DNA of 64,000 nt. Source: Candidatus Omnitrophota bacterium. Its GTDB lineage: Bacteria; Omnitrophota; Gorgyraeia; Zapsychrales; Zapsychraceae. The position numbers and the translations under genes are program-made. This document shows, piece by piece, positions 424 through 38,284 of this stretch. Location: positions 42,108-106,107 of the forward strand of contig JAFGFL010000091.1 of assembly GCA_016931055.1 (NCBI GenBank), written 5' to 3'. Within the stretch, counting starts at the first letter, position 1; each line of letters starts with the position of its first letter. A model generated the notes under the pieces. It was not told where the DNA came from. It ran no database searches and worked only from the letters and a program-made list of their open reading frames with translations.

Positions 424-1188
424 ATGAAAAGTCTTAAAAAGAGAATTAATGGTGGTGAATTAACTATCGGATCATGGATCACGATCAGTTCACCCGAGAA
501 TGTTGAAGTGATGGGGCAGTTTGGATTTGACTGGCTTACGGTTGATATGGAACATTCTATGATTACGTTGCCGCAGGCGCAACAGTTGGTCCGAACCATC
601 AAGTCGATGAATATTCCGGCTTTAGTGCGGGTGGAGGAAAATAATGCGAATAATATAAAAAGGGTAATGGATCTAGGAGCGGATGGGATTATTGTTCCGA
701 TGGTGCTATCGAAAGAAGGCGCGCAGAGAGCTGTTGAAGCGGTGAAATATCCACCGCAAGGAATCAGAGGAGTCGGTTTGACCCGGGCGCAAGGATATGG
801 TTTCAAATTTGATTCTTACAAGGAATGGGTTAAGCGAGAAAGTATTGTCATTGCCATTATCGAACACTATAAGGCGGTGGACCATCTGGAAGAGATTTTG
901 TCTGTTGATGGCATAGACGCGACAATGATCGGTCCCTATGACCTTTCCGGATCAATGGGTTATCCGGGGGAATATAAGCGCAAGAATGTTGCTGATCAAA
1001 TTGCGCGTTATCTTAAGGTTAGTAAAGCGTTGAATAAACCAGCTGGTTTCCATGTTGTTCCTCCGGTAGCAAAACAGGTGGACGAAAAAATCAGAAGAGG
1101 ATTTAAATTTCTTGCCTTTGGAACAGACGCGCTCTTTTTAGGAACGAAGATCAAGGAACAATTGCGAATGGTCAAGAAATTGAAATGA
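424..1188 (+). CDS. HpcH/HpaI-family class II (pyruvate) aldolase
   Basis: About 250 aa; overall resemblance to the 2-keto-3-deoxy-acid aldolase family (the DxxH.. divalent-metal aldolase TIM-barrel pattern, LGADGIIVPMV, IGPYDLS); the start sits directly after the upstream stop. Confidence 0.7.
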   Translation: MKSLKKRINGGELTIGSWITISSPENVEVMGQFGFDWLTVDMEHSMITLPQAQQLVRTIKSMNIPALVRVEENNANNIKRVMDLGADGIIVPMVLSKEGAQRAVEAVKYPPQGIRGVGLTRAQGYGFKFDSYKEWVKRESIVIAIIEHYKAVDHLEEILSVDGIDATMIGPYDLSGSMGYPGEYKRKNVADQIARYLKVSKALNKPAGFHVVPPVAKQVDEKIRRGFKFLAFGTDALFLGTKIKEQLRMVKKLK

Positions 1189-1192
1189 TTTG

Positions 1193-2026
1193 ATGCGGAC
1201 GGAAACCAAAATAAAGATATTCAATAAATTGTCGGGCCTTTTAACGGATTCATTAACGTCAGCGGCAAGAGAACAGTCTTTGCTTAATTTGCGGAGAAAA
1301 CTAGAGGCTATCGTGCCCGATATCAAGGAACAATATACGGCTTTCAAGGTGGACAATGAGTATCTTCGGGCGAAGGTAAGGAATATGCATGCTTTTCAGA
1401 TATCGCTTGTCCAGCCGGTTGTCAGCCAATTTGAAAGCCCGACTATTGTCGATATCGGGGATTCTGCCGGGACACATATCCAGTATTTAAAGGGACTTTT
1501 TTCTGATAGTTGTTCATTAAAATGTTTAAGCGTGAATCTGGAAAAGGAAGCGGTTGAGAAAGTCAGGCAAAAAGGGATTGAAGCTATTCAGGCGAGAGCG
1601 GAAAATTTGGTCCAATATGATGTTCAAGCTGATATTTTTCTTTGTTTTGAAATGCTGGAGCATTTAATGGATCCTTGCCGGTTTCTGTATGAATTGTCGA
1701 TGAAAACGAAAGCGAGGTTTTTAATTCTAACGGTTCCGTATGTGAAAAAAAGCCGGATTGGCCTGTATCAAATCCGAAATAATAGAAATGAGGATTTTGG
1801 TGCGGAAACGACGCATATTTTTGAACTATCCCCTGAGGATTGGAAATTGCTTTTCCGATTCACGGGATGGCGGGTTGACCATGAAGTTGTTTACCGGCAG
1901 TATCCTCGAAAAAACTGGCTGCGCCTGACCAGTTACTATTGGCGAAAATATGATTTTGAAGGATTTTTTGGGGTGCGTTTAATTCCGGACCATTCGTGGT
2001 CCTCAAGATATCAGGATTGGTCATAG
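1193..2026 (+). CDS. class I SAM-dependent methyltransferase-like protein
   Basis: Motif I-like VDIGDSAGTH; motif II/III-like DIFLCFEMLEHL; the ATG at 1193 follows a TTG at 1190. Confidence 0.45.
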   Translation: MRTETKIKIFNKLSGLLTDSLTSAAREQSLLNLRRKLEAIVPDIKEQYTAFKVDNEYLRAKVRNMHAFQISLVQPVVSQFESPTIVDIGDSAGTHIQYLKGLFSDSCSLKCLSVNLEKEAVEKVRQKGIEAIQARAENLVQYDVQADIFLCFEMLEHLMDPCRFLYELSMKTKARFLILTVPYVKKSRIGLYQIRNNRNEDFGAETTHIFELSPEDWKLLFRFTGWRVDHEVVYRQYPRKNWLRLTSYYWRKYDFEGFFGVRLIPDHSWSSRYQDWS

Positions 2027-2027
2027 G

Positions 2028-2837
2028 ATGAAAAGAATGAAAATAACTGCCATTATCCCTGTCCGCATGCAAGCCACACGGTTTTCTGGTAAACCGCTAG
2101 CTTTAATTTTGGGATTACCTATGGTGGAACATGTTCGCCGCCGGGTTTCTTTATGCCGGGAATTAAGTAATGTTATTGTTGCCACTTGTGATCAAGAGAT
2201 CAAAGAGGTTGTTGAGAAAGCAGGAGGAAAGGTCATCATGACGGCTGACACCCATCAGCGTTGCACGGATCGCATTGCCGAAGCGGCAAGGAACATTGAT
2301 GCGGACATAATCATCAATGTTCAAGGCGATGAACCGCTTGTTATACCGGAAATGATGAACGCGGTTATAGAGCCGTTTTTGTCGGATTTAAAAGTGCCTT
2401 GTGTCAACATGATTGCTCCGATTCTGGAAAAAGAAGAATTTGAGGATCCTAATGCTCCGAAGGTTGTCCGGAATCTGAAAGGCGATATCCTTTATATTTC
2501 AAGAGAACCGATTCCTTCCAAAAAGAAAGCGGCTCATGAAAATTATCCAAAATGGAAGCAGTTGGGATTGATTGCGTTTCGCAGTGATTTTCTTCAGACA
2601 TTTGCACGGCTTAAACCGACGCTATTGGAAGAGGTGGAATCCGTTGATATGATGCGGGCCATTGAACATGGATTTAGAGTGCGCACGGTCGTGACAGAGG
2701 CGAAAATGATCGGGGTTGATGTTCCCGCTGATGTTGGAAAAGTCGAACAGGTTTTAAGAACAGACCCATTATTTGAGAGATATATGTCTCGGTCAGTTAA
2801 TGCTGGACAAACAAACGATGAACGGATGGTCATATGA
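2028..2837 (+). CDS. kdsB: 3-deoxy-manno-octulosonate cytidylyltransferase (CMP-Kdo synthetase)-like
   Basis: IIPVRMQATRFSGKPL, VIVATCD, GGKVIMT..HQRCTDRIAEA, NVQGDEPLV, PNAPKVV, ILYISREPIP, GVDVPADV; these are colinear with the E. coli KdsB motifs IIPARYASTRLPGKPL / NVQGDEPMIP / GVDTPEDL. Confidence 0.8.
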   Translation: MKRMKITAIIPVRMQATRFSGKPLALILGLPMVEHVRRRVSLCRELSNVIVATCDQEIKEVVEKAGGKVIMTADTHQRCTDRIAEAARNIDADIIINVQGDEPLVIPEMMNAVIEPFLSDLKVPCVNMIAPILEKEEFEDPNAPKVVRNLKGDILYISREPIPSKKKAAHENYPKWKQLGLIAFRSDFLQTFARLKPTLLEEVESVDMMRAIEHGFRVRTVVTEAKMIGVDVPADVGKVEQVLRTDPLFERYMSRSVNAGQTNDERMVI

Positions 2838-3889
2838 ATAGATTGAGAGTGGGCATCGCGGGTTTTGGGGTTGTCGGAAATCGCCGGAGGGAAGTGATTG
2901 ATCAAAATCCGTATTTCCAGACAGTGGCGGCGTGTGATCAAAAGTTTATTCAAAATATGCCTAAATCGAAGGACCTGAAGTTTTTCACAAACTACAAAGA
3001 TTTATTGAAGGTGCCTCTGGATGTTTTGTTTGTGTGTCTGCCGAATTATTTGGCGGCGGAGGTAACAATCGCCGGATTAGAACGAGGGGTGCATGTCTTT
3101 TGCGAAAAACCACCGGGTCGGATGGTCGAAGACATTGAGCGGGTCATCGAAGCGGAAAAGAAACATCCGCAGTTGAAATTAAAATATGGCTTTAACCATC
3201 GGTACCATGATTCCGTTCAGGAAGCCTTAAGGATTGTCCATTCCGGGGAGTTGGGTGAGATCATCAATATGCGGGGCGTTTACGGAAAAAGCAAGATTAT
3301 TCCTTTCTCCGGTGGGTGGCGGGCGGAGCGGCGGTATTCCGGCGGAGGGATCCTTCTGGATCAGGGCATCCACATGGTCGATCTGATGCGGTTGTTTTGC
3401 GGGGAATTTGAGGAGGTCAAAAGCTTTGTCTCAAACAGTTATTGGAACCATGATGTGGAGGATAACGCTTACGCAATCATGCGCGATCGCAAAGGGCGCA
3501 TCGCGATGCTCCATTCAACAGCGACTCAATGGCAGCACCAATTTTCGCTGGAAATCGCCCTGACGCAAGGGTCTCTTTGTTTGAAAGGAATCCTCTCCGG
3601 GTCTAAAAGTTATGGCCAGGAGCAGCTCATCAAGGCAAGGCGCAGCGAGGCGGATACCGGGATCGAAGGCGAAGAAGTGGTCAATTACTTAAATGATGAT
3701 TCCTGGCGCAGAGAAGTTAATGAATTTGCCGATGCGGTCATCAATAATGTTCCAGTCCCATCGGGGACAAGTAGGGACGCACTGTTAACGATGCAGTTAG
3801 TGTACAAGATTTATTTCGCCGATGAAGGATGGCGCGAACAATTCCAGATTCAAGATCCCGTTAGAATTCCGGCCGGACAGGATCGTTAA
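2834..3889 (+). CDS. Gfo/Idh/MocA-family NAD(P)-dependent sugar oxidoreductase
   Basis: N-terminal Rossmann segment LRVGIAGFGVVG; EKPP motif FCEKPPG; roughly 350 aa; 4-bp start/stop overlap. Confidence 0.75.
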   Translation: MNRLRVGIAGFGVVGNRRREVIDQNPYFQTVAACDQKFIQNMPKSKDLKFFTNYKDLLKVPLDVLFVCLPNYLAAEVTIAGLERGVHVFCEKPPGRMVEDIERVIEAEKKHPQLKLKYGFNHRYHDSVQEALRIVHSGELGEIINMRGVYGKSKIIPFSGGWRAERRYSGGGILLDQGIHMVDLMRLFCGEFEEVKSFVSNSYWNHDVEDNAYAIMRDRKGRIAMLHSTATQWQHQFSLEIALTQGSLCLKGILSGSKSYGQEQLIKARRSEADTGIEGEEVVNYLNDDSWRREVNEFADAVINNVPVPSGTSRDALLTMQLVYKIYFADEGWREQFQIQDPVRIPAGQDR

Positions 3890-3903
3890 AACGGAGGAAA
3901 GCG

Positions 3904-4524
3904 ATGAATATCCTAGAGGAGATTTTTGCACAAAGCAATATCCGGACAGATTACTTTAGAAGTTATTGCGACTATTTAAAAAGACTTATCTCTCAAATCG
4001 ACATGGAATCGGTCGAGAGGGTCGTAGAGTGCTTTTCAAAAGCCAGACAGGAGAACAAGACGATTTACTTTGCCGGCAACGGAGGGAGCGCCGCGACCGC
4101 TTCCCATTTTGCCCAGGACATGAACGAGATCGGTCGAAAAATTCGCGGGAAAGGGTTTAGGACGCAAAGTATTAACGACAGTGTGGCTGCGCTGACGGCG
4201 ATCAGCAACGATTACAGTTATGACAATGTGTTTGCCATGCAGATTCAGTACAACTTTGATGAAGGCGATGTTTTGGTTGTTATCTCGGCTAGCGGGAACA
4301 GCCCAAATGTGATCAATGCCGTCAAACTAGCGAAAGAAAAGGGTGGAACAACAATTGGGTTGGTTGGGTTTGATGGAGGACGACTGGCACAGATCTGTGA
4401 CCATGTTGTTCATATTAAAAGTAAAAAGGGCGAATATGGCCCGGTGGAAGATATCCATCTGGTTCTCGATCACCTGATTGTTTCCTACTTGACGATGGAA
4501 TTAGCTAAAGAGAACAATCCATGA
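3904..4524 (+). CDS. gmhA: SIS-domain sugar-phosphate isomerase, GmhA-like (sedoheptulose-7-phosphate isomerase)
   Basis: FAGNGGSAATASHFAQD, ISASGNSPNVINAVKLAKEKG and GFDGG are colinear with the E. coli GmhA motifs CGNGGS..HFAEE, STSGNSANVI and GKDGG; 206 aa with no CBS pair, so not KdsD. Confidence 0.7.
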   Translation: MNILEEIFAQSNIRTDYFRSYCDYLKRLISQIDMESVERVVECFSKARQENKTIYFAGNGGSAATASHFAQDMNEIGRKIRGKGFRTQSINDSVAALTAISNDYSYDNVFAMQIQYNFDEGDVLVVISASGNSPNVINAVKLAKEKGGTTIGLVGFDGGRLAQICDHVVHIKSKKGEYGPVEDIHLVLDHLIVSYLTMELAKENNP

Positions 4525-5435
4525 AGAGAAAAGTCCTTGTTTCAACATCGACATTTGCCGATTCTGACGATGCTCCGTTAAAGAAGCTTAAGAAGTCCGG
4601 ATTTGAGGTCATGCTGAATCCTTATAAACGCAAGCTTTCCAAAGAAGAGTTGATGCAATTATTGCCGGGAGTTAGCGGCCTAATAGCCGGTTTAGAGACC
4701 CTTGATCATGAAGTGATGTCCCGGTCGCAACTGAAAGTTATATCGCGTTGCGGTTCGGGGACGTCAAATGTGGATAAGGAAACAGCCGGTAAACTTGGGA
4801 TCCGGGTGTGTAACACGCCTGATGGCCCAACGGATGCTGTTGCTGAGCTGACGATCGCATGCCTTCTGAACTTGCTGCGCAAGGTGTCGATAATGGATCA
4901 GGCCCTTCACCAGGGACGGTGGGAAAAACAGACGGGACTTCAATTGGAAGGCAAAACGGTTGTAATCATCGGATTAGGCAGGATAGGACGCCGAGTGGCG
5001 CAATTGTTAATCCCGTTCGGAGCGAGGATCATCGGTGTTGACCCGTTTGTCAATAAAGCCGATGCTTCAATTAAGATTTTGTCACTTCAAGAGGCTTTAC
5101 CGTTGGCCGATATCATAACGTTTCATTGCAGCGGTGAAAAATGTTTATTATCTGATAACGAATTTGGTTTGGTGAAAAAGGGCGTGTTTTTGCTGAATGC
5201 GGCGAGAGGAACATTAGTTGACGAGAAGGCATTAATTGAGGCTTTAGACACAAGCCGCGTAGCAGGTGTTTGGTTGGATACATTCGGGCAAGAACCATAT
5301 TCGGGGAAATTGATCCGGTATTCTCAGGTGCTATTGACACCGCATGTCGGTTCATACACGAAAGAATGCCGCCAGCAGATGGAAATGCAGGCGGTTAATA
5401 ATTTAATTGAGGCTTTAGCCAAATATGAATATTGA
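4521..5435 (+). CDS. D-isomer-specific 2-hydroxyacid dehydrogenase family protein
   Basis: NAD-binding GKTVVIIGLGRIGRRVA; downstream catalytic-domain pattern (LLNAARG..VDE, TPHVGS); 4-bp overlap with the upstream gene. Confidence 0.75.
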   Translation: MKRKVLVSTSTFADSDDAPLKKLKKSGFEVMLNPYKRKLSKEELMQLLPGVSGLIAGLETLDHEVMSRSQLKVISRCGSGTSNVDKETAGKLGIRVCNTPDGPTDAVAELTIACLLNLLRKVSIMDQALHQGRWEKQTGLQLEGKTVVIIGLGRIGRRVAQLLIPFGARIIGVDPFVNKADASIKILSLQEALPLADIITFHCSGEKCLLSDNEFGLVKKGVFLLNAARGTLVDEKALIEALDTSRVAGVWLDTFGQEPYSGKLIRYSQVLLTPHVGSYTKECRQQMEMQAVNNLIEALAKYEY

Positions 5436-6174
5436 ATTCCAAAACAAGATTGTTCTTGTCACGGGATCGACAAGGGGTATCGGCAGACAGATTGCGGAAG
5501 ATTTTGGAAAGTCAGGCGCCCAATTGATCCTGACTGGAACGCAACAGCGCCAGATTGATCAACTTAACGCGAGGGCAAAGAAACTCAGATTGAAACGAAG
5601 ATATTATTGTGTTGATTTCTCTTCCCGGGAAAGTTTACGAACGTTTCTCAAAGAAATTGAACAATATAAGCGCATTGATGTTTGTGTCAATAATGCCGGT
5701 ATCAACCGGTTAAATGAGGTGGATAGGACGAAAGAAGAGGATTGGGATGACATGATCGAAGTGAATTTACGGGCACCGTTTATGTTGATCCGCCAAATTG
5801 GCAAACAAATGAAAAAGCAGCGTTATGGGCGCATCATTAATATTTCCTCTATTTTTGGCATCGTAAGTCGTGAGAAACGATCAATCTATACGACAACGAA
5901 ATCCGGTCTGCATGGATTGACGGTTGCCGCGGCGCTTGAATTGGCCAAGTATAATGTTCTGGTGAACACGGTTTCCCCCGGATTTACACGGACAGATTTG
6001 ACCAACAAGAACCTGAGTAAAGAAGACCAAAAAGAAATTGCACGACAAGTACCCATGCAAAGATTCGGAAACACTCAGGATATTTCAAAAGTTGTTCTCT
6101 TTTGCGCGAGCGTATTAAACACCTATATGACAGGGCAGAATATTATTGTGGATGGAGGGTTTATCTGTGCCTAA
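5425..6174 (+). CDS. classical short-chain dehydrogenase/reductase (SDR)
   Basis: VLVTGSTRGIGRQIA (TGxxxGIG), NNAG, YTTTKSG (YxxxK). Confidence 0.75.
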   Translation: MNIEFQNKIVLVTGSTRGIGRQIAEDFGKSGAQLILTGTQQRQIDQLNARAKKLRLKRRYYCVDFSSRESLRTFLKEIEQYKRIDVCVNNAGINRLNEVDRTKEEDWDDMIEVNLRAPFMLIRQIGKQMKKQRYGRIINISSIFGIVSREKRSIYTTTKSGLHGLTVAAALELAKYNVLVNTVSPGFTRTDLTNKNLSKEDQKEIARQVPMQRFGNTQDISKVVLFCASVLNTYMTGQNIIVDGGFICA

Positions 6175-7243
6175 TTCATTTAGTGTCCGTTCCCTATTCC
6201 GTGAATATTCTGTCGAGTTTATCGACAATTTGAAACAAAGAATCCGGTCTTTGGTGGACAAAGGTCATTTCTTCGTTATTGACGCCGGGGTTTACGATCT
6301 CTATCAGGATTGTTTTAAGACGGTTGTTTCAAAAGACGCTCTATTTATCGAAGAAGCGATAGAAAAAGCGAAGACATTTGAAAATAGTTATTCTCTGATC
6401 AAGCGTTTAATGGCGTCTGGTGTCCGAAAGAATACGACCTTGGTGGCTGTTGGCGGCGGCGTTATCCAGGACCTGACGGCGTTCGTCAGTTCTATCCTGT
6501 TCAGGGGGATCGAGTGGATGTTCTTTCCGACGACCCTCTTGGCCCAGGCGGACAGCTGTATCGGGAGCAAGACATCGATCAATATGGAGGGTTATAAAAA
6601 CATTTTGGGGAATTTTTATCCGCCATCAAAGATTTTCATTGACCTGAAATTCCTAGAATCTTTAAATGATGGGGATATCAAATCCGGTATTGGGGAGATG
6701 ATGCATTTTTATTTTGTGGCTGGAAGTCCATATGCGGAGAAAATCGCGACACATTATCAAGAGTTGTTTGCCGGCCGAGAATGGTTCGGTGAATATATTG
6801 ATGCCAGCTTGGCCATAAAGAAAGATGTTATCGAGCGGGATGAATTTGATAAAGGCGAACGTAACCTGTTTAATTATGGCCATACATTTGGTCACGCGAT
6901 TGAAACGATCACGGATTATAAAGTGCCGCATGGTCAGGCGGTGACGTTAGGGATGGATATCGCGAATTATATATCTCTTCAGAGGGGGATGATTGATCTG
7001 GAGATATTTGGCCGGATGCGCCAGATTTTGATGAACAATTTGCCGAAATTGGAAATTTCCGATGAGCAAATGGATCGATATATGGATGCTTTGTCAAAAG
7101 ACAAAAAAAATACGAACCAGGGCCTGACATGTATTTTAACGGAGGGCCCGGGGCGGATGAAGAGGGTCTGTATTCCGATGGATGAACCATTACGCAACAT
7201 GATCGGTTCGTGTGTTAACCATTACGCGGTAAATAGGTCTTAA
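6167..7243 (+). CDS. 3-dehydroquinate-synthase-family sugar-phosphate cyclase (DHQS-like; EEVS/DOIS-like)
   Basis: LVAVGGGVIQDLTAFVSS, FFPTTLLAQADSCIGSKTSIN and NYGHTFGHAIE match the conserved DHQS nucleotide and metal-site motifs. A GTG at 6167 with GGAGGG 8 nt upstream is the likely start; the track ORF begins at an ATG at 6146. Confidence 0.7.
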   Translation: MPNSFSVRSLFREYSVEFIDNLKQRIRSLVDKGHFFVIDAGVYDLYQDCFKTVVSKDALFIEEAIEKAKTFENSYSLIKRLMASGVRKNTTLVAVGGGVIQDLTAFVSSILFRGIEWMFFPTTLLAQADSCIGSKTSINMEGYKNILGNFYPPSKIFIDLKFLESLNDGDIKSGIGEMMHFYFVAGSPYAEKIATHYQELFAGREWFGEYIDASLAIKKDVIERDEFDKGERNLFNYGHTFGHAIETITDYKVPHGQAVTLGMDIANYISLQRGMIDLEIFGRMRQILMNNLPKLEISDEQMDRYMDALSKDKKNTNQGLTCILTEGPGRMKRVCIPMDEPLRNMIGSCVNHYAVNRS

Positions 7244-7244
7244 T

Positions 7245-9212
7245 ATGGCGACGGGATTCAAAAACGCAAAAACATTATGGGCTTGTTGGATGAAGCCTGC
7301 TGATCTGCCGGAAGAAGCGGTTGTTCTCAGTTTTCTTAAACCGAGCGTTGAAGAAGAAATGAGAAAACAAGGGAAAACGGCTGAATTGATTTTCGCGCGG
7401 CAGAAAGCGGCGGATGTTAAACAAAAGGCATTGGACATGTATGTTGAAATGGTCGCTCAGCTCGGGACGGTTTCTTTAAAAGATGGAAAAACATTGCGAA
7501 AGGCGTTAGAGGACGGGGAAGGAATCAGCTCGTGGTGGTTCCATCCGGTTTCAAGGAAGTATTGCGAAGGCGAGCCGACATTTAATCATATTATCCAGAT
7601 ATTGGCAATTAGTCAGGTGGCTGAGGATCATGGGTGTTCCCATATCATTGTTTACGGTGGGCCCTATGAAATTGCAGATGCATTGGGTAAACGATTTTTT
7701 GTATCGGCACAAAAATGCCGAAACCAAAATTCGTGGATGTTTGATTATATTTTGCCGCTCATGCGACGGTTTAAATTTCTTATCGTTTCGATCTATGAAC
7801 TTATTGTTCTTAAATCGTGTGTGACAAATTCAAAGCCAGCGCAAATGGATGTCCTTTTTTCTGGTTTCTGGGACTGGAGCGTCTGGGAAGATGGATCATC
7901 AAAAAAGTTGGTGGATAGGTATTTCCAGGCTGTTCCCGAGAAAGTGAAGAAAGCGGGCATGGAGGTGGGTTGGCTGGCGTGGGTTCAGCACACAACGGAT
8001 CCAAATAAAACACGTCGGTCGATTCAGCAAGCGATAAAACCGCTTCGCCGGCATCCGGAAATCATTATTGTCCAATGTTTCCTGACGATTGTCGATATTC
8101 TCAAGGCCGTTATTGATTTAAGGCCGTTCTTGATCTTTTGGCGTTACAGAAATGTTTCAGGATTAAAAGGCGTTCTTTGCCAGGAGGGGCTTGATTTCTC
8201 TCCGCTGTTTCGAGGGGCTTTGTTTGCTGGTTTTCTGGACTCAACCATTCCTCGCCATGCCTTGATCATGTTGGCTCATCAAAAAGCGGCTTCGCACCAT
8301 CGTCCCAAGAGTGTCCTGAGTTTCCTTGATTTCTTTTTGCATGCGCGGGCCGTTAATGCCGGAATAAAGAAAGGATGCCCCTCATGCGTCTTGGTTGATG
8401 TGCAGCATGCGAGTTATTCACGGGAGAAAACATTTGGGATTTTTCAGCCGAATATTGAAGTTCACGGAAACCCTGATGGATGCATGATCCCCCATCCTGA
8501 TTACATTTGCGCGATGGGTGAACTTGGAAGGGAAATTTTCATTGAAGGCGGGGCAGATCCGGAGCGAGTCTTGATGACGGGGTCTTCCCGTTATGATGGC
8601 GCGACACGAGTTGACGCGGGAGAGAAGCCAAAAACGGGTATTTCAGGGAAACGGATACTGATCGTAACGACTTTACAGAAAATGGGATCCGAATTCGAAA
8701 TGGTTGACACGGTTCATGAGGCCTTCAGGCAATTTCCGGATGTTTCATTGTCTTTACGTTCTCATCCTTTCTTCAGAATGCAAGATAGTCCTGAATTTCA
8801 GCCTTACAAAGACAGAATACAATGCACTTCCGGAACTTCCCTGGATGATGATTTGAACAAGGCGGATATCGTCTTATTCTCTTATTCAACTGTTGCGGAA
8901 GAAGCATTTATTCGAGGGATTCCCGTTTGGCAATGGATTACAGCGGGGTATAACGCGTCCGTGTTCCGGGATATCGGGATGGTGCCAACATTTTTTTCTG
9001 TTGAAAGTCTGGTTCGTGTATATCGTCGATTTCTGGAAAGTCCTGATAAGTATGTGCCTTCGGTTGAACAGAGAAAGCTGGTTAAGCGAAAATGTTTTTT
9101 TGATGACAATGGAAGCGGCAGACTTCCTTCAGATAATATTGCAGAACTGCTGGCAACCATTTGCGGGAAGAAACATGAATTATCCGAATCTAGAGAATAT
9201 GCGGGGATTTAA
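7245..9212 (+). CDS. large uncharacterised protein with a GT-B-like C-terminal region; candidate surface-carbohydrate glycosyltransferase
   Basis: 655 aa; C-terminal GKRILIVTTLQ...LRSHPFF...ADIVLFSYSTVAEEAFIRGIPV resembles the retaining GT-B / TagF-KpsC-like C-domain arrangement; I recognise no precise family. Confidence 0.3.
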   Translation: MATGFKNAKTLWACWMKPADLPEEAVVLSFLKPSVEEEMRKQGKTAELIFARQKAADVKQKALDMYVEMVAQLGTVSLKDGKTLRKALEDGEGISSWWFHPVSRKYCEGEPTFNHIIQILAISQVAEDHGCSHIIVYGGPYEIADALGKRFFVSAQKCRNQNSWMFDYILPLMRRFKFLIVSIYELIVLKSCVTNSKPAQMDVLFSGFWDWSVWEDGSSKKLVDRYFQAVPEKVKKAGMEVGWLAWVQHTTDPNKTRRSIQQAIKPLRRHPEIIIVQCFLTIVDILKAVIDLRPFLIFWRYRNVSGLKGVLCQEGLDFSPLFRGALFAGFLDSTIPRHALIMLAHQKAASHHRPKSVLSFLDFFLHARAVNAGIKKGCPSCVLVDVQHASYSREKTFGIFQPNIEVHGNPDGCMIPHPDYICAMGELGREIFIEGGADPERVLMTGSSRYDGATRVDAGEKPKTGISGKRILIVTTLQKMGSEFEMVDTVHEAFRQFPDVSLSLRSHPFFRMQDSPEFQPYKDRIQCTSGTSLDDDLNKADIVLFSYSTVAEEAFIRGIPVWQWITAGYNASVFRDIGMVPTFFSVESLVRVYRRFLESPDKYVPSVEQRKLVKRKCFFDDNGSGRLPSDNIAELLATICGKKHELSESREYAGI

Positions 9213-9214: not shown

Positions 9215-10213
9215 ATGGCACAGACTAAAGTGCTTGTCACAGGTGGGGCGGGATTTATCGGCAGTCATCTGGTTGATCGATTATTGGCCGGTGGATATTC
9301 GGTCACCGTTATTGATAATTTTTCCACCGGAAGGGCGCTGAATCTATCTCACTGCCAAAAAGACATCACGTTGATCGAGGCGGATATAACTGATTTTGGC
9401 AAGATTTCACCTCTCTTTAAAGGAATCGATTGCGTTTTTCATTTAGCGGCGCTGGCTGATATTGTGCCATCGATTGTTAATCCAAGAGCGTATTACTTAA
9501 CCAATGTTTTAGGAACGATGAATGTGTTGGAAGCGTCACGGCTGGCCGGCGTGAGAAAACTGGTCTACACGGCGTCATCCTCTTGTTACGGTATCCCGCC
9601 TGAAGGGTTTTATCCTACCCTTGAGACAGCGCCGATCAATCCCCAATATCCTTACGCGCTGACAAAGTATTTAGGGGAGGAAACGGCTTTACATTGGGGA
9701 CAGGTGTATGGCCTTCCGGCCATATCGTTGCGTTTGTTTAATGTGTATGGGCCGCGGTCAAGAACATCCGGGACTTATGGGGCTGTCTTTGGCGTGTTTC
9801 TGGCGCAGAAGTTGAAAGGGAAGCCGCTGACGGTCGTTGGGGACGGGAATCAGGTGAGGGATTTTGTTTATGTGACGGACGTCGCTGAGGCCTTTTTTTC
9901 GGCAGGTTTTTCGGATGTCCAAAGCGGGATTTTCAATGTAGGAACGGGGAATCCGCAAAGTGTTAATAAACTGGTCTCTCTTTTAGGAGGCGCGAAAGTC
10001 CATATTCCCAAGCGTCCTGGGGAACCGGATATGACATGGGCGAATATCCAAAGGATTAAATCCGAACTTGGGTGGGAGCCAAGGGTTTCGTTTGAAGAGG
10101 GTGTCGCCAAAATACTGGAACATATCGATTACTGGAGAGAGGCTCCGGTCTGGACACCGGAAAAAATTGAGGAAGCAACTAAAGACTGGTTTAGATATCT
10201 TGTAAGGAACTGA
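9215..10213 (+). CDS. NAD-dependent nucleotide-sugar epimerase/dehydratase (extended SDR)
   Basis: VLVTGGAGFIGSHLVDRLL; catalytic YALTKYLGE (YxxxK); about 330 aa. Confidence 0.8.
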   Translation: MAQTKVLVTGGAGFIGSHLVDRLLAGGYSVTVIDNFSTGRALNLSHCQKDITLIEADITDFGKISPLFKGIDCVFHLAALADIVPSIVNPRAYYLTNVLGTMNVLEASRLAGVRKLVYTASSSCYGIPPEGFYPTLETAPINPQYPYALTKYLGEETALHWGQVYGLPAISLRLFNVYGPRSRTSGTYGAVFGVFLAQKLKGKPLTVVGDGNQVRDFVYVTDVAEAFFSAGFSDVQSGIFNVGTGNPQSVNKLVSLLGGAKVHIPKRPGEPDMTWANIQRIKSELGWEPRVSFEEGVAKILEHIDYWREAPVWTPEKIEEATKDWFRYLVRN

Positions 10214-10215
10214 TC

Positions 10216-11748
10216 ATGAATTCGAAAATCGCGAAGAAAATACAAACACCCGGGGTCTTGACCAAAATAGTCGCGGACCTTAAGAAAAAAGGGAAAAAAA
10301 TCGTTCAATGCCACGGTGTATTTGACATTGTTCATCTGGGCCATATTCGCCATTTTAATTTGGCAAAGAAAGAAGGAGATGTTCTGTTGGTGACATTGAC
10401 AAGGGACAAAGATGTTAAACGGGGTCCCGGGCGCCCGATCTTTAATGAAAACATGAGGGCGGAAACATTGGCTTCATTGGACGTGACGGATTATGTGAGC
10501 ATTATTGACGCGCCGACGGCGACTGATTTTATCAGGAAAGTCAAGCCGGATGTGTATGTCAAGGGGATGGAGTATAAACAGAAAGAGAAAGATTTAACGG
10601 GCAAGATTTATGAAGAAGAAGAGGCTATTCAATCGGTCGGCGGGCGCATCGCATTCACGGACGATATCACGTTTAGTTCATCAAACATTATTAACAGCTA
10701 TCTGGATACTTTTCCGCCAAGAACCGTGAAATATCTTAAGGCCATTTCCAAAAGGTATTCCATTGACCATATTATCGATTCAGTCAATGCGCTGCAAAAA
10801 CTGAAGGTCATTGTGATCGGAGACGCGATCGTTGATGAATATCATTATTGTACGACAATGGGAAAATCTTCGAAGGCTGAAATAGTGGTCAATAAGTATG
10901 AATCGGAGGAAATGTTCGCGGGGGGCGCTTTAGCCACGGCTAATAATGTGGGGAGTGTTTGCGGAGGCGTTGATCTGGTCACGATTTTGGGGAACAATCC
11001 TTCTCATGAGGACTTTGTCCGTCGGAGACTTAATTCAAACGTTAAACCTGCTTTCTTTTACCGGCCGGGAACAGGAACAACGGTGAAACGTCGGTTTGTC
11101 AGCAGTGTGTTTAACAGGAAGTTGTTTGAAATTTGTTATATGAATGACAGTGATATTTCACGGGAAGAGGAAGCCGAGATTGTTCAGAAGCTGAAGGAAA
11201 TGATCCATAGATATGATCTGGTCGTGGTCTCGGATTTTGGGCACGGGTTATTAACCCGGCGTATCATTGATCTGATTTGCAAGAAAGCCAAATATCTGGC
11301 CATCAATGTTCAGACAAACAGCGCGAATGCCGGATTTAATTTGGTTACCAAATATCCCAGGGCCAATTGTGTTTGTATCGATGAGATGGAACTGCGTTTT
11401 GCCGCCCATGACAAATTCGGTGATGTCCGGACGCTTTCCAAAAAGATATATAACCAGATTGGTTGCGATCATATCATTGCGACGAGAGGGAACTATGGTT
11501 CGATCTGTTATTCAAAAGAACATGGCTATCATGAGACCCCCGCCTTTTCAAGCAACGTGGTGGATGCCATTGGCGCGGGTGACGCGTTTTTTGCCTATAT
11601 TGCGCCCTGTTTTGCCTCGGGCATGCCGCAGGATATGGTTTCGTTTGTCGGCAACGCGGTCGGTTCGTTGGCTGTGCAGATCGTCTGCAACCGGGAACCG
11701 GTGAATTTGGTGGACTTGACAAAGTTTATGACACGATTACTTAAATAA
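10216..11748 (+). CDS. hldE: bifunctional heptose 1-phosphate nucleotidyltransferase / heptose 7-phosphate kinase (HldE/RfaE-like, domain order reversed)
   Basis: N-terminal cytidylyltransferase-like domain CHGVFDIVHLGHIRH (HxGH) with RGPGRPIFNENMR; C-terminal PfkB kinase domain with VIVIGDAIVDEY and VVDAIGAGDAFFA. Confidence 0.75.
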   Translation: MNSKIAKKIQTPGVLTKIVADLKKKGKKIVQCHGVFDIVHLGHIRHFNLAKKEGDVLLVTLTRDKDVKRGPGRPIFNENMRAETLASLDVTDYVSIIDAPTATDFIRKVKPDVYVKGMEYKQKEKDLTGKIYEEEEAIQSVGGRIAFTDDITFSSSNIINSYLDTFPPRTVKYLKAISKRYSIDHIIDSVNALQKLKVIVIGDAIVDEYHYCTTMGKSSKAEIVVNKYESEEMFAGGALATANNVGSVCGGVDLVTILGNNPSHEDFVRRRLNSNVKPAFFYRPGTGTTVKRRFVSSVFNRKLFEICYMNDSDISREEEAEIVQKLKEMIHRYDLVVVSDFGHGLLTRRIIDLICKKAKYLAINVQTNSANAGFNLVTKYPRANCVCIDEMELRFAAHDKFGDVRTLSKKIYNQIGCDHIIATRGNYGSICYSKEHGYHETPAFSSNVVDAIGAGDAFFAYIAPCFASGMPQDMVSFVGNAVGSLAVQIVCNREPVNLVDLTKFMTRLLK

Positions 11749-11758: not shown

Positions 11759-12775
11759 TTGATGAATCAGTTGAAAACGGTTTTGGTGACGGGCGGAGCA
11801 GGATATGTCGGCGCAGTTCTTGTTCCTAAATTATTAGATCAGGGATACCGGATCAAAGTGCTTGACCTTTATACATATGGAGAAGATGTTTTTGACGGCG
11901 TAAAAGATAAATCCAAATTAGAAGAGATCAAGGGGGATATTTGTGATCAATCCTTGCTGAAGAAGTCACTCCAGGGGTGGGACGCGGTTATCCATTTGGC
12001 CTGTATTTCCAATGATCCGTCTTTTGAACTTGACCCTGAGTTGAGCCGAAGGGTGAATTATGAGTGTTTTGAACCGTTGGTGAAGATCAGTAAGGAAGTT
12101 GGTGTCAAAAGATTCATTTATGCTTCTACCTGCAGCGTTTACGGGGTCAGCGACGCCGAGAACGTGACTGAAGACCATCCGCTACTGCCCATTACGGATT
12201 ATAACAAGTACAAGGGATTATGTGAACCCATATTGGCGAGGTATCAATCACCGGGATTTACTACCGTTACGATCCGGCCAGCGACGATTTGCGGATATTC
12301 CCCGCGGCAAAGATTTGATCTGACGGTCAATATTTTGACGAACCATGCGTACAACAAAAATCACATAACGGTATACGGGGGAAAACAGGAACGTCCGAAT
12401 ATCCATATTGATGACATTACTGATCTCTACGTCATGCTTTTGAAGCTTCCGGATGAACAAATCGCGGGAAAAATATACAATGCGGGTTATCAAAACCGGA
12501 CAGTATCAGATATCGCAGAAATAGTCGCGAATGTGATGGCTGAAGAATTCCCGGCAAGGGATCGAGCGACCATATCGACAACGCCGTCTGACGACAATCG
12601 ATCCTATCGGATTTCATCGGAAAAAATCAAAAAAGAACTGGGATTTGTCCCTCAGCATACCATTGAGGATAGTGTGAGGGATCTGATCAGGGCTTTCGAA
12701 GCAGGCAAATTCAAGGATCCCCTTAATAATATCCGTTATTACAATATCAAAATGCTGAAGGCGGTGAAGGTATGA
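11759..12775 (+). CDS. NAD-dependent nucleotide-sugar epimerase/dehydratase (extended SDR)
   Basis: VLVTGGAGYVGAVLVPKLL; YNKYKGLCE (YxxxK); RBS GGGAGGAAG upstream. Confidence 0.8.
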   Translation: MMNQLKTVLVTGGAGYVGAVLVPKLLDQGYRIKVLDLYTYGEDVFDGVKDKSKLEEIKGDICDQSLLKKSLQGWDAVIHLACISNDPSFELDPELSRRVNYECFEPLVKISKEVGVKRFIYASTCSVYGVSDAENVTEDHPLLPITDYNKYKGLCEPILARYQSPGFTTVTIRPATICGYSPRQRFDLTVNILTNHAYNKNHITVYGGKQERPNIHIDDITDLYVMLLKLPDEQIAGKIYNAGYQNRTVSDIAEIVANVMAEEFPARDRATISTTPSDDNRSYRISSEKIKKELGFVPQHTIEDSVRDLIRAFEAGKFKDPLNNIRYYNIKMLKAVKV

Positions 12776-13902
12776 CGTCCTGCGTGATGAGTGTTCCTTA
12801 TGTCGATCTGGCGCAGCAGCACGCGGCCATCAAAAATGAGTTGATGGATGCGATGGGGCATGTCCTTGACGGCGGTAAGTTTGTGCTTGGATCGGAAGTT
12901 CATGAGTTTGAAGAAAAGTTTGCCCAATTATGCGGTGTCCGTTTCGCGTTGGGACTCAATTCCGGGACAGACGCTCTTATCCTTGCGCTTAAGTCGTTGA
13001 ATATCGGAGCGGGAGATGAAGTCATCGCCGTTGCGAATTCATTTGTTTCTTCGGTCAGTTGCATCATGGCGGTGGGGGCGCGCCCTGTTTTTGTCGATGT
13101 CAACGCGGAATCCAATATGGATCCGCGGCTGATCGAACAGGCGATCACGCCCAAGACGAAGGCGGTTCTTCCCGTTCACTGGACGGGTCGGCCCGCGGAT
13201 ATGACGGCGATCATGTCTATCGCCAAGAAGCATCATTTGGCTGTCATTGAGGACTGCGCTCAGGCGGTTTGCGCTGAGCATCAAGGCCAGAAAGTTGGAT
13301 CATTTGGTCATGCCGGATGTTTCAGTCTTCATCCGCTAAAGACATTGAATGCTTGCGGCGATGGAGGCGTGTTGACGACAAATGATCCAGACATTTATGA
13401 GAAAGTGCGGATCCTCAGAGACAACGGGTTCCGGACGCGTGAAGAGTGCGTCATGTGGAGCAATAATTCCAGGCTGGATACCATCCAGGCCGCTATTTTG
13501 ATGGTTAAATTCAAGTATCTTGACGGCTGGACCGAGAAGCGAAGAGAAAACGCGCGATTCTATCAGGATCATCTTTCCGATTTGTCCGAGGTCCAGACGC
13601 CGGTTGATGAAGCCGGCACCAGGGCTGTTTATCATACTTTTGTCATTCAAGCGGATGTTCGGGACCGTTTGAAAGCTTATCTGGAAGAAAAAAGTGTTGG
13701 CACAAAAATCCATTATCCTGTTCCGCTTCATCTGCAGCCGTTTGCCAGAGGTTTAGGATACAAACGAAACAGTCTTCCGGTCACGGAGAAACAAGCGGGG
13801 CGGATTCTGAGTCTGCCGGTTTATCCTGAATTGGGAAAAGACGGGTTGAGTTATGTGGCCCAATGTATTCATGAATTTTATCGTATGAAAGGAAAGAAAT
13901 GA
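12772..13902 (+). CDS. DegT/DnrJ/EryC1/StrS-family PLP-dependent sugar aminotransferase
   Basis: NSGTDALILAL, GDEVI, FSLHPLKTLNACGDGG (PLP lysine); about 375 aa. Confidence 0.85.
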   Translation: MTSCVMSVPYVDLAQQHAAIKNELMDAMGHVLDGGKFVLGSEVHEFEEKFAQLCGVRFALGLNSGTDALILALKSLNIGAGDEVIAVANSFVSSVSCIMAVGARPVFVDVNAESNMDPRLIEQAITPKTKAVLPVHWTGRPADMTAIMSIAKKHHLAVIEDCAQAVCAEHQGQKVGSFGHAGCFSLHPLKTLNACGDGGVLTTNDPDIYEKVRILRDNGFRTREECVMWSNNSRLDTIQAAILMVKFKYLDGWTEKRRENARFYQDHLSDLSEVQTPVDEAGTRAVYHTFVIQADVRDRLKAYLEEKSVGTKIHYPVPLHLQPFARGLGYKRNSLPVTEKQAGRILSLPVYPELGKDGLSYVAQCIHEFYRMKGKK

Positions 13903-15047
13903 AGGTCCCTTATTCTTATTTAGACCGTCAGTTCGCGGATATTGACGCTTACTTGGAAGACATCAGGGCGCTTGTTGAAAGCGGGGATTTTACGTTGGGC
14001 AAGCCTGTTGATGAATTTGAAAAAAGCTTTGCCCGGTTGTGCGGTTTGCCGTACGCGATCGGGGTTGGATCAGGAACGGATGCACTGATCTTGTCTTTAA
14101 AAATTTTGGGAATAGGCCCCGGAGATGAGGTGATTACGACACCAAATACCTTTATCTCGACAGTTGGCGCTATCGTTATGGTGGGCGCGCGTCCGGTTTT
14201 TGTTGATAATAATGAAGAATATACGATTGATGCCGCGAAGATTGAGAAGGTGATCACCAAAAAGACAAAAGCGATCCTTCCGGTCCATCTGACGGGTTGC
14301 CCGGCCGATATGCCGACGATCATGAAAATCGCCCATCGGCACAAAGTATTGGTTGTTGAAGACGCGGCTCAGGCCATTCTTGCCTCGATCGATGGGAAAC
14401 ACATGGGTTCTTGGGGGGAAACAGCTTGCTTCAGTCTGCATCCGCTGAAGAATTTGAATGTCTGGGGCGATGGGGGCGTCATTGTGACCCGCTCGGCGCA
14501 GTTGTGCCGGAAGCTGAAACTTTTCCGGGACCACGGCATGGTGACGCGTGATGAAATTGAGATGTTCAGTCACAACAGCCGTCTGGATTCCATTCAGGCG
14601 GTTGTAGGCAACCGTTTGATTGGCGAAGTGCATTCCATCACGGATAAACGCATCGCTAACGCGCGGCGATTTGATGATGCTTTTAAAGGTTTGGACGATT
14701 ATATCAAGGTCCCGCCGAGAAGGGTGAATGTCAAACGGGTTTATCATACTTATGTGCTTCGGGTTAAGGATCGGGATAAATTATTGGCGCATTTGATTGA
14801 GAAGGGGATCAGGGCGAAAATTCATTATCCCATTCCTGTTCATTTGCAGAAAGCGGCCAAATATCTGGGATATAAACGGGGCGATTTTCCTGTTTGTGAA
14901 CAGGACGCGAGAACGATTTTGACCTTACCGGTCCATCAGCATCTAACGTCCGGCGAAATGGAATACATGATTGATTGCGTGAAAGGCTTTTATGCGGGAC
15001 GGAAAATCAAAGGAGTCAAGAAGCATGCGGCATGTTGTCGGGGTTGA
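13899..15047 (+). CDS. DegT/DnrJ/EryC1/StrS-family PLP-dependent sugar aminotransferase (tandem paralog)
   Basis: GSGTDALILSL, GDEVITTPNTF, FSLHPLKNLNVWGDGG; 4-bp overlap with the upstream DegT. Confidence 0.85.
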   Translation: MKVPYSYLDRQFADIDAYLEDIRALVESGDFTLGKPVDEFEKSFARLCGLPYAIGVGSGTDALILSLKILGIGPGDEVITTPNTFISTVGAIVMVGARPVFVDNNEEYTIDAAKIEKVITKKTKAILPVHLTGCPADMPTIMKIAHRHKVLVVEDAAQAILASIDGKHMGSWGETACFSLHPLKNLNVWGDGGVIVTRSAQLCRKLKLFRDHGMVTRDEIEMFSHNSRLDSIQAVVGNRLIGEVHSITDKRIANARRFDDAFKGLDDYIKVPPRRVNVKRVYHTYVLRVKDRDKLLAHLIEKGIRAKIHYPIPVHLQKAAKYLGYKRGDFPVCEQDARTILTLPVHQHLTSGEMEYMIDCVKGFYAGRKIKGVKKHAACCRG

Positions 15048-15654
15048 TTTTGATAATACCATCGTGAATTATGACAAGGTGATGTATCAAACGGCTGTCC
15101 GGTTCGGTTGGGTTGATGATTCAGTGAGGAAAAACAAGAAAGATGTTCGTGACCGGATCAGATTGTTGCCGCAGGGTGAAATAAAGTGGCGAAAATTGCA
15201 GGCTACTGTTTACGGGCAGGCCATGAGGGGCGCGATCATGAACATAGGGGTGAAGGAGTTCTTTCGGTCTTGTCGGATGAAAAGGATACCGACGTATATT
15301 ATCAGCCATAAGACCAAGTACGCGGCCGAAGATGAACAGAAAATTGATCTCAGGAAGGTGGCGTTGGATTGGATGGAGGAACAGGGGTTCTTTGGCCAAA
15401 AAGAAATGGGGCTTGCCCGAGATCAAGTGTATTTTGAATCGACACGGCAAAAAAAGATCGAACGGATCCGGAAAATGGGATGCACTTGTTTTGTTGATGA
15501 TCTTCAGGAGACTTTTTTGGAACCGTCGTTTCCAGGAGGCGTGGAAAAAATATTATTTTCGAAAAATGCCGCCAGCTGTTTGCCGAAAGAAATAAAAATA
15601 ATCGGTAGTTGGAAGGAAATCAGTGACTATCTCTTTAACACAAACAACGCATAA
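15025..15654 (+). CDS. HAD-superfamily hydrolase (putative sugar-phosphate phosphatase, GmhB/KdsC-like role)
   Basis: VGVDFDNTIV (DxDxT motif I); FVDD near the C-terminus; AAAGGAG RBS 8 nt upstream of the ATG at 15025. Confidence 0.5.
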   Translation: MRHVVGVDFDNTIVNYDKVMYQTAVRFGWVDDSVRKNKKDVRDRIRLLPQGEIKWRKLQATVYGQAMRGAIMNIGVKEFFRSCRMKRIPTYIISHKTKYAAEDEQKIDLRKVALDWMEEQGFFGQKEMGLARDQVYFESTRQKKIERIRKMGCTCFVDDLQETFLEPSFPGGVEKILFSKNAASCLPKEIKIIGSWKEISDYLFNTNNA

Positions 15655-16705: not shown

Positions 16706-16707
16706 AT

Positions 16708-20604: not shown

Positions 20605-21316
20605 GTTCTCCAGCTTTGATTATTCAACAGTTCAAGGCGTACCGGAAATTGCCTTGCGTGTTGAGCTGTTGTCTCAGCGGCTCCAATTGCTTTCGAAAAA
20701 TGAACAACCGATGATATTGGAAATCGGCGTCGGAACGGGCGATGTGACGTTAATGTTGGCCAAACAATTTAAACATGTGACATGTGTCGACATGGAGGAG
20801 GATAATTGCCAGGCTGTTTCAGATAGGCTTAAACCGTCGGGGTTGAATCATGTCGAGTTTGTCTGTTCAACGATCGAAGCGGCATCATTACCGAAGAAGT
20901 CGTATCAACACATTATTATGCAGAATATTCTTGAACATCTGAAAGACCCTGTTGAAGTCTTAAAAGTTGTCAAAAACTATTTGAAACCGGATGGACGTAT
21001 CCACCTCTCTGTCCCCTTGGCGAATTCTTTGCATCGGTGGCTGGGAGTTGAATTGGGGATGATTCCTTCAACAGAAACGTTGGCGGAATCGGATATCCAA
21101 TACGGGCATTACCGTGTTTATGTTCCTCAATTGCTTCGGGACCATATACAGTCTGCCGGATACACGGTCGCTTTTGAGAAATTATTTTATTTAAAGCCGT
21201 TAACAACGGCTGTTTTAACGCCGTTATCTAGAGAAATTCATGAAGCGCTGTTCCGGTTGGGTGAGCGATTCCACGAATTTGCTTCATATATCTATCTGGA
21301 GGCGATGGGCCGGTGA
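20591..21316 (+). CDS. class I SAM-dependent methyltransferase
   Basis: ILEIGVGTGDVT (motif I), CVDMEE, IIMQNILEHL, LKPDGRI. Confidence 0.75.
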   Translation: MTNVKFSSFDYSTVQGVPEIALRVELLSQRLQLLSKNEQPMILEIGVGTGDVTLMLAKQFKHVTCVDMEEDNCQAVSDRLKPSGLNHVEFVCSTIEAASLPKKSYQHIIMQNILEHLKDPVEVLKVVKNYLKPDGRIHLSVPLANSLHRWLGVELGMIPSTETLAESDIQYGHYRVYVPQLLRDHIQSAGYTVAFEKLFYLKPLTTAVLTPLSREIHEALFRLGERFHEFASYIYLEAMGR

Positions 21317-27092: not shown

Positions 27093-27108
27093 ACACGTGG
27101 AGAGGTCA

Positions 27109-38278: not shown

Positions 38279-38284
38279 CGACTG

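Follow-up and report, generated by a model that had tools for sequence, protein, structure and literature searches.

Results

A DHQS-like gene within a surface-glycan operon

We analysed a 64,000-nt stretch of DNA from a Candidatus Omnitrophota bacterium (assembly GCA_016931055.1, contig JAFGFL010000091.1, positions 42,108 to 106,107), hereafter the window, and focus here on an open reading frame (ORF) at 6167-7243 on its plus strand that encodes a relative of 3-dehydroquinate synthase (DHQS). This DHQS-like gene belongs to an operon of nine genes, all on the plus strand (424-9212), which encode the following proteins:

424-1188, plus strand: HpcH/HpaI class II pyruvate aldolase (Pfam PF03328, 3.7e-32; closest solved structure the 2-keto-3-deoxy sugar aldolase YfaU)
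1190-2026, plus strand: SAM-dependent methyltransferase, accessory tailoring (weak Pfam matches to Methyltransf_11 and Methyltransf_23)
2028-2837, plus strand: KdsB-like CMP-(ulosonic acid) cytidylyltransferase, here called the CMP-transferase (PF02348, 3.1e-40; NCBIfam NF009905, 303 bits against a cutoff of 255)
2834-3889, plus strand: Gfo/Idh/MocA oxidoreductase (three Pfam Gfo/Idh/MocA domains; closest structures inositol 2-dehydrogenase and glucose-fructose oxidoreductase)
3904-4524, plus strand: SIS-domain sugar-phosphate isomerase, GmhA-like (PF13580, PF01380; all closest solved structures are phosphoheptose isomerases)
4521-5435, plus strand: D-2-hydroxyacid dehydrogenase, phosphoglycerate-dehydrogenase-like (PF02826, PF00389; closest structures D-3-phosphoglycerate dehydrogenases, 176 bits)
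5425-6174, plus strand: ketoreductase of the classical short-chain dehydrogenase/reductase (SDR) type (PF13561, PF00106)
6167-7243, plus strand: predicted DHQS-superfamily NAD+/metal-dependent sugar-phosphate phospho-lyase, family TIGR04425 (assigned from models, residues, tree and fold)
7245-9212, plus strand: TIGR04326-like 'surface carbohydrate biosynthesis protein' (no Pfam match; TIGR04326 at 63 bits, under its cutoff)

Translation of 6167-7243 gives an uninterrupted protein of 358 amino acids that begins with GTG, the likely start of the gene. A GGAGG sequence is located 5' of this codon, and the start shares 8 nt with the stop-codon end of the SDR gene upstream, which is also the most frequent junction in related loci (18/58). 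An identical (100%) protein of 358 residues is present at NCBI in a Candidatus Omnitrophica metagenome-assembled genome (MAG). An initial annotation of this DNA had recognised DHQS signatures in the protein, and these are borne out by the three motifs GGGVIQDL, PTTLLAQADSCIGSKTSIN and NYGHTFGHAIE, by matches to both Pfam DHQS domains (PF01761, 6.7e-34; PF24621, 3.6e-32), and by an AlphaFold (AF2) model built with 28 homologues as input (predicted local distance difference test score, pLDDT, 91.6), which Foldseek places on Mycobacterium tuberculosis AroB (3qbe) with a template modelling (TM) score of 0.86, indicating the two-domain DHQS fold. The DHQS-like protein passes the model TIGR04425 (441 bits, cutoff 400), an NCBI curated family named 'AroB-related putative sugar phosphate phospholyase (cyclizing)' with the model type 'hypothetical equivalog', and several of its near homologues carry this name in NCBI. 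The gene is in this sense already in the databases; literature searches (family name, DHQS with HpcH or cytidylyltransferase, nonulosonic, O-antigen, capsule) found no experimental paper on the function of TIGR04425 or on the cassette described below.

A first possibility to be weighed is that this is simply the housekeeping 3-dehydroquinate synthase (AroB) placed by chance in a glycan locus. Its nearest relatives among solved structures are true DHQS enzymes, and its active site keeps the DHQS residues, but the protein fails the aroB model TIGR01357 (264 bits, cutoff 305) while exceeding the cutoff of TIGR04425, and many bacterial and archaeal lineages share its translational coupling to an SDR within glycan cassettes. 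We found no shikimate-pathway gene among the annotated ORFs of the window and no second DHQS-superfamily gene within its 64 kb, in line with the initial annotation, which had placed the gene in glycan rather than shikimate surroundings. A tblastn search of plasmids matched ordinary aroB genes only, at about 30% identity. Judged by its sequence, the DHQS-like gene is a genuine DHQS relative that is distinct from the housekeeping enzyme.

The active site is DHQS-like, and the family forms its own clade

Reference DHQS, aminoDHQS, EVS, EEVS, DDGS and DOIS sequences were taken from the supplement of PMC4426668. From an alignment of these sequences and 108 family members, we scored 13 active-site positions in the numbering of Aspergillus nidulans (An) DHQS. 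For the roles of these positions we rely on the A. nidulans DHQS carbaphosphonate structure, in which we take R130, K152, N162, N268, H275 and K356 to bind phosphate, and K250 and R264 to bind the carboxylate. The window protein retains 12/13 positions (R130, D146, K152, N162, E194, K250, R264, N268, H271, H275, H287 and K356). No variation is seen at the metal ligands E194/H271/H287, or at D146, K152 and N162, across the window protein and the 108 family sequences, and R130, N268, H275, K356, K250 and R264 are likewise conserved in 108/108. The sole change is K197 to His, corresponding to H180 of the window protein (codon at approximately 6704-6706). This His is typical of the window's subclade (most proteins of the type I loci described below, at least 42% identity), while the remaining family has Lys and retains all 13 positions; in the reference cyclases the position is Lys in all but RifG, where it is Arg.

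This pattern bears on the proposal of the initial annotation that the protein resembles the cyclases of validamycin/acarbose (EEVS-type) and 2-deoxystreptamine (DOIS-type) pathways. According to this explanation the enzyme would cyclise sedoheptulose 7-phosphate (S7P) or glucose 6-phosphate and, together with a split transketolase, DegT aminotransferases, an APH-like kinase and a zinc-dependent alcohol dehydrogenase (Zn-ADH), lead to a C7-cyclitol or aminocyclitol. At An positions 250/264/268/275/356 the window protein has K, R, N, H, K, compared with M, R/Q, D, P, V in EEVS and M, D, A, P, L/S in DDGS, and at 264/268/356 BtrC (DOIS) has G, E, N where the window protein has R, N, K. EEVS, DDGS and DOIS each depart from the DHQS pattern at 3-4/13 positions, and their fingerprints (EEVS M250, D268, P275, V356; DDGS M250, D264, A268, P275; DOIS G264, E268, N356) conflict with that of the DHQS-like protein. 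On the other side, EVS, which uses S7P, departs from the DHQS pattern at K356 alone (Arg), and an S7P substrate is therefore still compatible with the residues seen here. Overall the residue pattern favours, without proving, a DAHP-like acid phosphate (DAHP, 3-deoxy-D-arabino-heptulosonic acid 7-phosphate) as the substrate.

Neighbour-joining unites the SDR-linked proteins in a single clade (198/200 bootstraps) outside the DHQS, EVS, EEVS, DDGS and DOIS groups, at 24-28% identity to the reference DHQS sequences. The initial annotation had named a tight grouping with AroB as the result that would speak for a housekeeping gene; we do not observe one, and taken together with the model scores we regard the AroB explanation as extremely improbable. 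The two EVS references group together (188/200), again outside the SDR-linked clade. We had at first grouped the type I and type II proteins described below as separate clades, and rejected this because the tree supports only the whole family well. Family-specific residues are few (Q101, W117, C131, G176, L215 and F241).

The DHQS-like gene belongs to a widespread cassette

Contigs bearing near homologues, found in Scalindua, Chlorobium, Patescibacteria and a JGI metagenome, show the same gene run as window 424-7243, namely HpcH aldolase, KdsB-like cytidylyltransferase, Gfo/Idh/MocA oxidoreductase, SIS protein, 2-hydroxyacid dehydrogenase, SDR and DHQS-like protein. A scan of one genome per species added 80 further loci, which span many bacterial and archaeal lineages and whose neighbouring genes were then clustered. 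Carriers of the cassette include SAR11, SAR86, anammox bacteria, candidate-phylum lineages, gut Lachnospiraceae and methanogens, with Draconibacterium mangrovi GM2-18 (locus L017) and Butyrivibrio sp. MB2005 among those in culture, and the SDR lies directly upstream of the DHQS-like gene in 69/79 loci.

The window has what we call the type I architecture, for which 26 loci are fully flanked. Gfo is found in 24 of these, the 2-hydroxyacid dehydrogenase in 23, the CMP-transferase (CTP_transf_3) in 22, SIS in 20 and the aldolase in 13, and the type I loci also hold families of sialic-acid-type pathways (MptE-like, DUF386/YhcH and NeuB). The structure closest to the CMP-transferase is the Escherichia coli capsule CMP-Kdo (3-deoxy-D-manno-octulosonic acid) synthetase 1gq9 (157 bits). 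From their sequences, the aldolase is a candidate for the C3-condensing step, a KdsA-like role, and the SIS protein (114 bits with the gmhA model, under the cutoff of 209) is a candidate for a KdsD-like role. We initially read the HpcH aldolase as a core cassette gene and rejected this, since only half of the type I loci carry it; it is present in most of the cassettes retrieved with Gfo as seed (see below). A homologue of the methyltransferase at 1190-2026 occurs only in two Scalindua loci (L001/L002, 57% identity), and other cassettes carry other methyltransferases.

In the type II architecture (20 fully flanked loci), SDR and DHQS-like genes are accompanied by an acetolactate-synthase-like thiamine diphosphate (ThDP) enzyme (20) and a C3-condensing enzyme (18) of one of three kinds (HpcH-like, HMGL-like or NeuB-like); NDP-sugar genes are present and a CMP-transferase is absent. 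Examples among L022-L078 include L053 (7418-13970) and L075 (6686-11080). Their ThDP enzyme is about 600 residues long and possibly YerE-like, the HMGL-like variant comes with an FGGY kinase, and NDP-sugar 4,6-dehydratase and DegT genes adjoin. Type II may serve to make long branched-chain sugars. Another observation from this survey is that L076, a chromosome of a Gammaproteobacteria MAG, has two DHQS-family genes near one another on opposite strands at approximately 10001-10822.

The cassette also allows the gene inventory on which the C7-cyclitol or aminocyclitol proposal was built to be examined. All of the genes cited for it are indeed inside the window: the split transketolase (16708-18473), the GmhA-like SIS protein (3904-4524), two DegT genes (12772-15047), the Zn-ADH (19486-20604), the Gfo/Idh/MocA oxidoreductase (2834-3889), the APH-like kinase (15623-16705) and nucleotidyltransferases (2028-2837 and 10216-11748). 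Read as one pathway, however, the inventory mixes separate sub-clusters, given that the transketolase, the APH kinase, the Zn-ADH and an HldE-like gene co-occur in only 0-2/85 related loci and that DegT gives weak matches only (about 29% identity, 29-30 loci). Its Gfo, SIS and CMP-transferase components prove to be true partners, along with the SDR and the 2-hydroxyacid dehydrogenase, while the transketolase, APH kinase, Zn-ADH and DegT do not.

A phosphatase replaces the DHQS-like gene and its SDR in orthologous cassettes

Through distant members of the 7245-9212 family we located three loci (L086, L087 and L089) with the gene order aldolase, CMP-transferase, Gfo, SIS, 2-hydroxyacid dehydrogenase, IMPase-like phosphatase (PF00459) and TIGR04326-like gene, in which the SDR is missing along with the DHQS-like gene. 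In a fourth locus, genes for an HMGL-like aldolase, a CMP-transferase and a HAD phosphatase precede a 7245-9212-type gene. Enzymes encoded upstream in the phosphatase-type cassettes share 43-74% identity with those of the window (Gfo 67-74%, 2-hydroxyacid dehydrogenase 54-60%), which is as near as those of other DHQS-type cassettes. For a count that does not favour DHQS-type loci we retrieved 80 metagenome loci using as seed the window's Gfo protein, the most conserved protein of the cassette (59-74% identity over these loci). Of the loci that were informative, 23 carry the IMPase-like gene and 15 the SDR and DHQS-like pair, while 2 lack both and none combines them. Their CMP-transferases are as similar to that of the window in phosphatase-type cassettes as in DHQS-type ones, which suggests that the products of the two versions are similar.

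Within 424-9212 of the window there is no phosphatase gene. Because an IMPase-family phosphatase takes the same slot in orthologous cassettes, and none of the informative loci combines the two, the SDR and DHQS-like pair most likely fills the KdsC-like phosphate-removal slot of a Kdo/KDN-like pathway, as judged from gene content. This replacement is a further point against housekeeping AroB. It also points to phosphate removal toward a CMP-activated ulosonic-type acid and not toward an aminocyclitol, and a phosphatase swap beside a CMP-transferase is ill-suited to such a route. Combined with the conflicting active-site pattern and the position outside the EEVS, DDGS and DOIS clades, this leads us to consider the EEVS/DOIS-type explanation very unlikely.

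In the examined examples a TIGR04326-like gene always comes after the predicted phosphate-removing gene, with one methyltransferase gene between them in L086. The window's protein of this kind (7245-9212) has 71 homologue clusters, and its family is labelled TIGR04326 by JGI; the Scalindua counterpart is a remote homologue. An AF2 model (pLDDT 91.6) gives GT-B-type matches with low TM scores to UDP-GlcNAc 2-epimerases, TagF/TarL and glycosyltransferases, and H507-P508 and E552-E553 are invariant in the family. On the basis of this model, the protein is a candidate glycosyltransferase for the CMP-activated product.

A proposed route to a CMP-activated acidic sugar

Taken together, the family, the cassette and the swap lead us to propose the following pathway, in which we infer the substrate, the order of the steps and the absence of cyclisation. 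The SIS isomerase, the Gfo/Idh/MocA oxidoreductase, the phosphoglycerate-dehydrogenase-like enzyme and the HpcH aldolase would build a 2-ulosonic acid with a terminal phosphate. The DHQS-like enzyme, using bound NAD+ and a divalent metal, would then oxidise the hydroxyl group that is beta to the carbon bearing the phosphate and release the phosphate by elimination, after which the SDR would reduce the remaining carbonyl, the KdsB-like enzyme would form the CMP derivative and the TIGR04326-like GT-B protein would transfer the CMP-activated sugar to the glycan. The near-constant SDR partner fits this scheme, because the carbonyl remaining after phosphate elimination would be its substrate. In the sister cassettes the second step would be a hydrolysis by the IMPase-family phosphatase, and since elimination and hydrolysis differ, the window's cassette should yield a different sugar.

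We think it likely that phosphate is removed by lyase chemistry within a CMP-ulosonic-acid pathway. The fuller proposal, in which the TIGR04425-type enzyme and its coupled SDR carry out the phosphate-removal step toward a CMP-activated acidic sugar with an omega-deoxy product that does not close a ring, is the one we prefer, at what we would call even chances, and the identity of this product as a non-cyclised omega-deoxy ulosonic acid, a true 2-keto sugar, is similarly finely balanced. What would decide the outcome is the length of the substrate. A C7 DAHP-like substrate, which the conserved active site suggests, would close spontaneously to a dehydroquinate-like carbocycle, whereas an omega-deoxy ulosonic acid would result if the phosphate were on an exocyclic chain of greater length (C9 or more). 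We favour the latter, evenly balanced as it is, over the C7 carbocycle, which we consider unlikely, because a carbocycle is unfit as a glycosyl donor and yet the CMP-transferase is nearly universal in the cassette, and because both cassette versions draw on common CMP-transferase and GT-B families, whose members do not divide by similarity between the versions. The omega-deoxy acid and the carbocycle would be equal in mass.

Several points weigh against the non-cyclised product. DHQS enzymology involves spontaneous ring closure after phosphate elimination, and to our knowledge all characterised members of the DHQS superfamily cyclise their substrate. With 12-13/13 positions kept, the simplest expectation from the sequences is a DAHP-like C7 substrate; a non-cyclising outcome requires that a substrate of C9 or longer be bound differently, and we know of no such activity for the DHQS fold. 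The roles given to the Gfo, SIS and 2-hydroxyacid dehydrogenase proteins are guesses, the aldolase is present in just 13/26 type I loci, and literature searches gave no biochemical or glycan-structure data for any carrier of the cassette.

An alternative explanation is a true cyclase, which would convert a DAHP-like C7 2-ulosonate 7-phosphate to a dehydroquinate-like carbocycle that the SDR would reduce to a quinate-like 'carba-ulosonic' acid of the glycan. Its substrate could be a C1-carboxy analogue of S7P formed via SIS, then Gfo, then the 2-hydroxyacid dehydrogenase. The gene order Gfo, SIS, 2-hydroxyacid dehydrogenase, SDR, DHQS-like is compatible with such a linear route from S7P, as is the finding that the closest solved relatives of the SIS protein and the dehydrogenase are GmhA and phosphoglycerate dehydrogenase. 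Half of the type I loci do without an aldolase, K250 and R264 are among the positions kept, and all known family members cyclise. Carbocyclic sugars are moreover found in lipopolysaccharide (LPS), namely caryose and bradyrhizose (PMC9671505, PMC4743980), which makes the initial annotation's term 'unprecedented' too strong for a carbocyclic unit of a surface glycan. Against a cyclase, from general chemistry a carbocycle has no ring oxygen and a CMP-linked carba-acid would not be transferable by ordinary glycosyltransferase chemistry, while the CMP-transferase is found in 22/26 loci, and the same CMP-transferase and GT-B families act in phosphatase-type cassettes, the product of which must be an ordinary ulosonic acid. 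On balance we regard this cyclase route as possible but improbable, and a broader version, in which a cyclising enzyme provides a nucleotide-activated carbocyclic acid (quinate-like, or an acidic pseudo-sugar bearing a carbocycle) to the surface glycans of many bacterial and archaeal lineages, as slightly more doubtful still. The omega-deoxy ulosonic acid remains our preferred product.

The remainder of the glycan locus

All long ORFs in the window (1-64000) that we take as genes are on the plus strand; its GC content is about 46%, and GC skew is strongly positive throughout (0.12-0.23 per 2-kb subwindow). The split transketolase lies beside the APH-like kinase (15623-18473), near an HldE-like gene with reversed domain order (10216-11748), and in the unrelated cassette-bearing locus L086 (17324-20821) the same transketolase pairing is found with a GHMP kinase and an NTP_transferase. 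Transketolase, kinase and nucleotidyltransferase appear to form a distinct, recurring module that makes a nucleotide-activated sugar. Three B12-binding radical SAM enzymes (31362-34950 and 44104-45741), with similar genes in L087 and L088, may C-methylate or otherwise tailor sugars. Between nonulosonic-acid genes lie an SDR, an AMP-binding enzyme, a LuxE-like acyl-protein synthetase and a LuxC-like acyl-CoA reductase (38548-43005), a set which suggests the synthesis of an acyl or aldehyde substituent for a sugar. The regions 24407-31552 and 34960-48137 contain two NeuB paralogues (27097 and 43018), two UDP-GlcNAc 2-epimerases (28977 and 45738), a second CTP_transf_3 gene (34960), a HisF/HisH fusion (24407) and an MptE-like protein (30521), and the locus, of at least 64 kb, may therefore hold up to two further nonulosonic-acid pathways. 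Five ORFs of 395-629 residues have no Pfam match (21313-22623, 25863-27092, 35679-37568, 48128-49315 and 55054-56712). The 629-residue ORF at 35679-37568 comes after a CMP-transferase gene; we considered whether its product is a paralogue of the 7245-9212 protein and rejected this, as the proteins are unrelated.

Discussion

If our proposal is correct, the DHQS fold would have a new use, in an enzyme that stands in for a phosphatase, and phosphate loss by elimination would mean that the sugar loses an oxygen or closes a ring rather than being plainly dephosphorylated. Microbes could then change between two forms of a CMP-activated acidic surface sugar by exchanging a single module. A widespread cassette with a product that is in no described glycan points to at least one undiscovered sugar of the ulosonic or carbocyclic type, and if the cyclase explanation were true it would supply the missing enzyme type for carbocyclic LPS sugars like caryose and bradyrhizose. 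There is also a practical consequence: many genes of the family are labelled '3-dehydroquinate synthase' or 'iron-containing alcohol dehydrogenase' in databases, and the former label could overstate the completeness of the shikimate pathway in reconstructions from MAGs.

Comparison with known systems

The DHQS-like protein shares with AroB (EC 4.2.3.4) the two-domain fold (TM 0.86), the NAD-binding GGGxxxD motif, the metal ligands and 12/13 active-site positions, and because of these shared features it probably also shares the oxidation and phosphate-elimination chemistry. It differs from AroB in the His found at K197 in the window's subclade, in its family-specific residues, in its fixed SDR partner and glycan context, and in being replaceable by a phosphatase. 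With the cyclases of secondary metabolism, EEVS (ValA), DDGS, EVS, DOIS (BtrC) and aminoDHQS (RifG), it has in common the superfamily and the status of a non-shikimate paralogue in a specialised pathway. However, its partners are a CMP-transferase and an SDR in place of the kinases, aminotransferases and O-methyltransferases of cyclitol pathways, and it groups with none of these enzymes.

Caryose and bradyrhizose are carbocyclic monosaccharides of LPS O-antigens for which biosynthetic genes are not established (PMC9671505, PMC4743980). A cyclase in glycan loci would be a candidate enzyme type for such sugars, although the window's cassette ends in CMP activation, which is ill-suited to a carbocycle. 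A parallel for the proposed mechanism may lie in nucleotide-sugar metabolism. In RmlB/RmlD logic, an NDP-sugar 4,6-dehydratase and a 4-ketoreductase produce a terminal deoxy sugar by transient NAD+ oxidation, beta-elimination and SDR reduction. This likeness is one of proposed mechanism only, the fold being unrelated, and here the proposed leaving group would be phosphate and not water, and the proposed substrate a free acid phosphate and not a nucleotide sugar.

In the Kdo pathway the isomerase KdsD, the synthase KdsA, the phosphatase KdsC and the CMP-transferase KdsB act in turn, and the KDN-9-phosphate route of Bacteroides is similar. The cassette would follow the same logic: after an isomerase step, a C3 condensation would give a phosphorylated 2-keto-3-deoxy acid, which would lose its phosphate, be activated with CMP and be transferred. 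The window encodes an isomerase, a candidate C3-condensing enzyme and a KdsB-like CMP-transferase together, with the phosphatase carried by the sister cassettes. In contrast to the Kdo and KDN routes, the cassette condenses with a pyruvate aldolase rather than a phosphoenolpyruvate-dependent synthase and has two additional oxidoreductases. Most importantly, the window has a DHQS-like lyase and an SDR where these routes have a phosphatase, and for this reason its product should be without the terminal oxygen or ring-closed.

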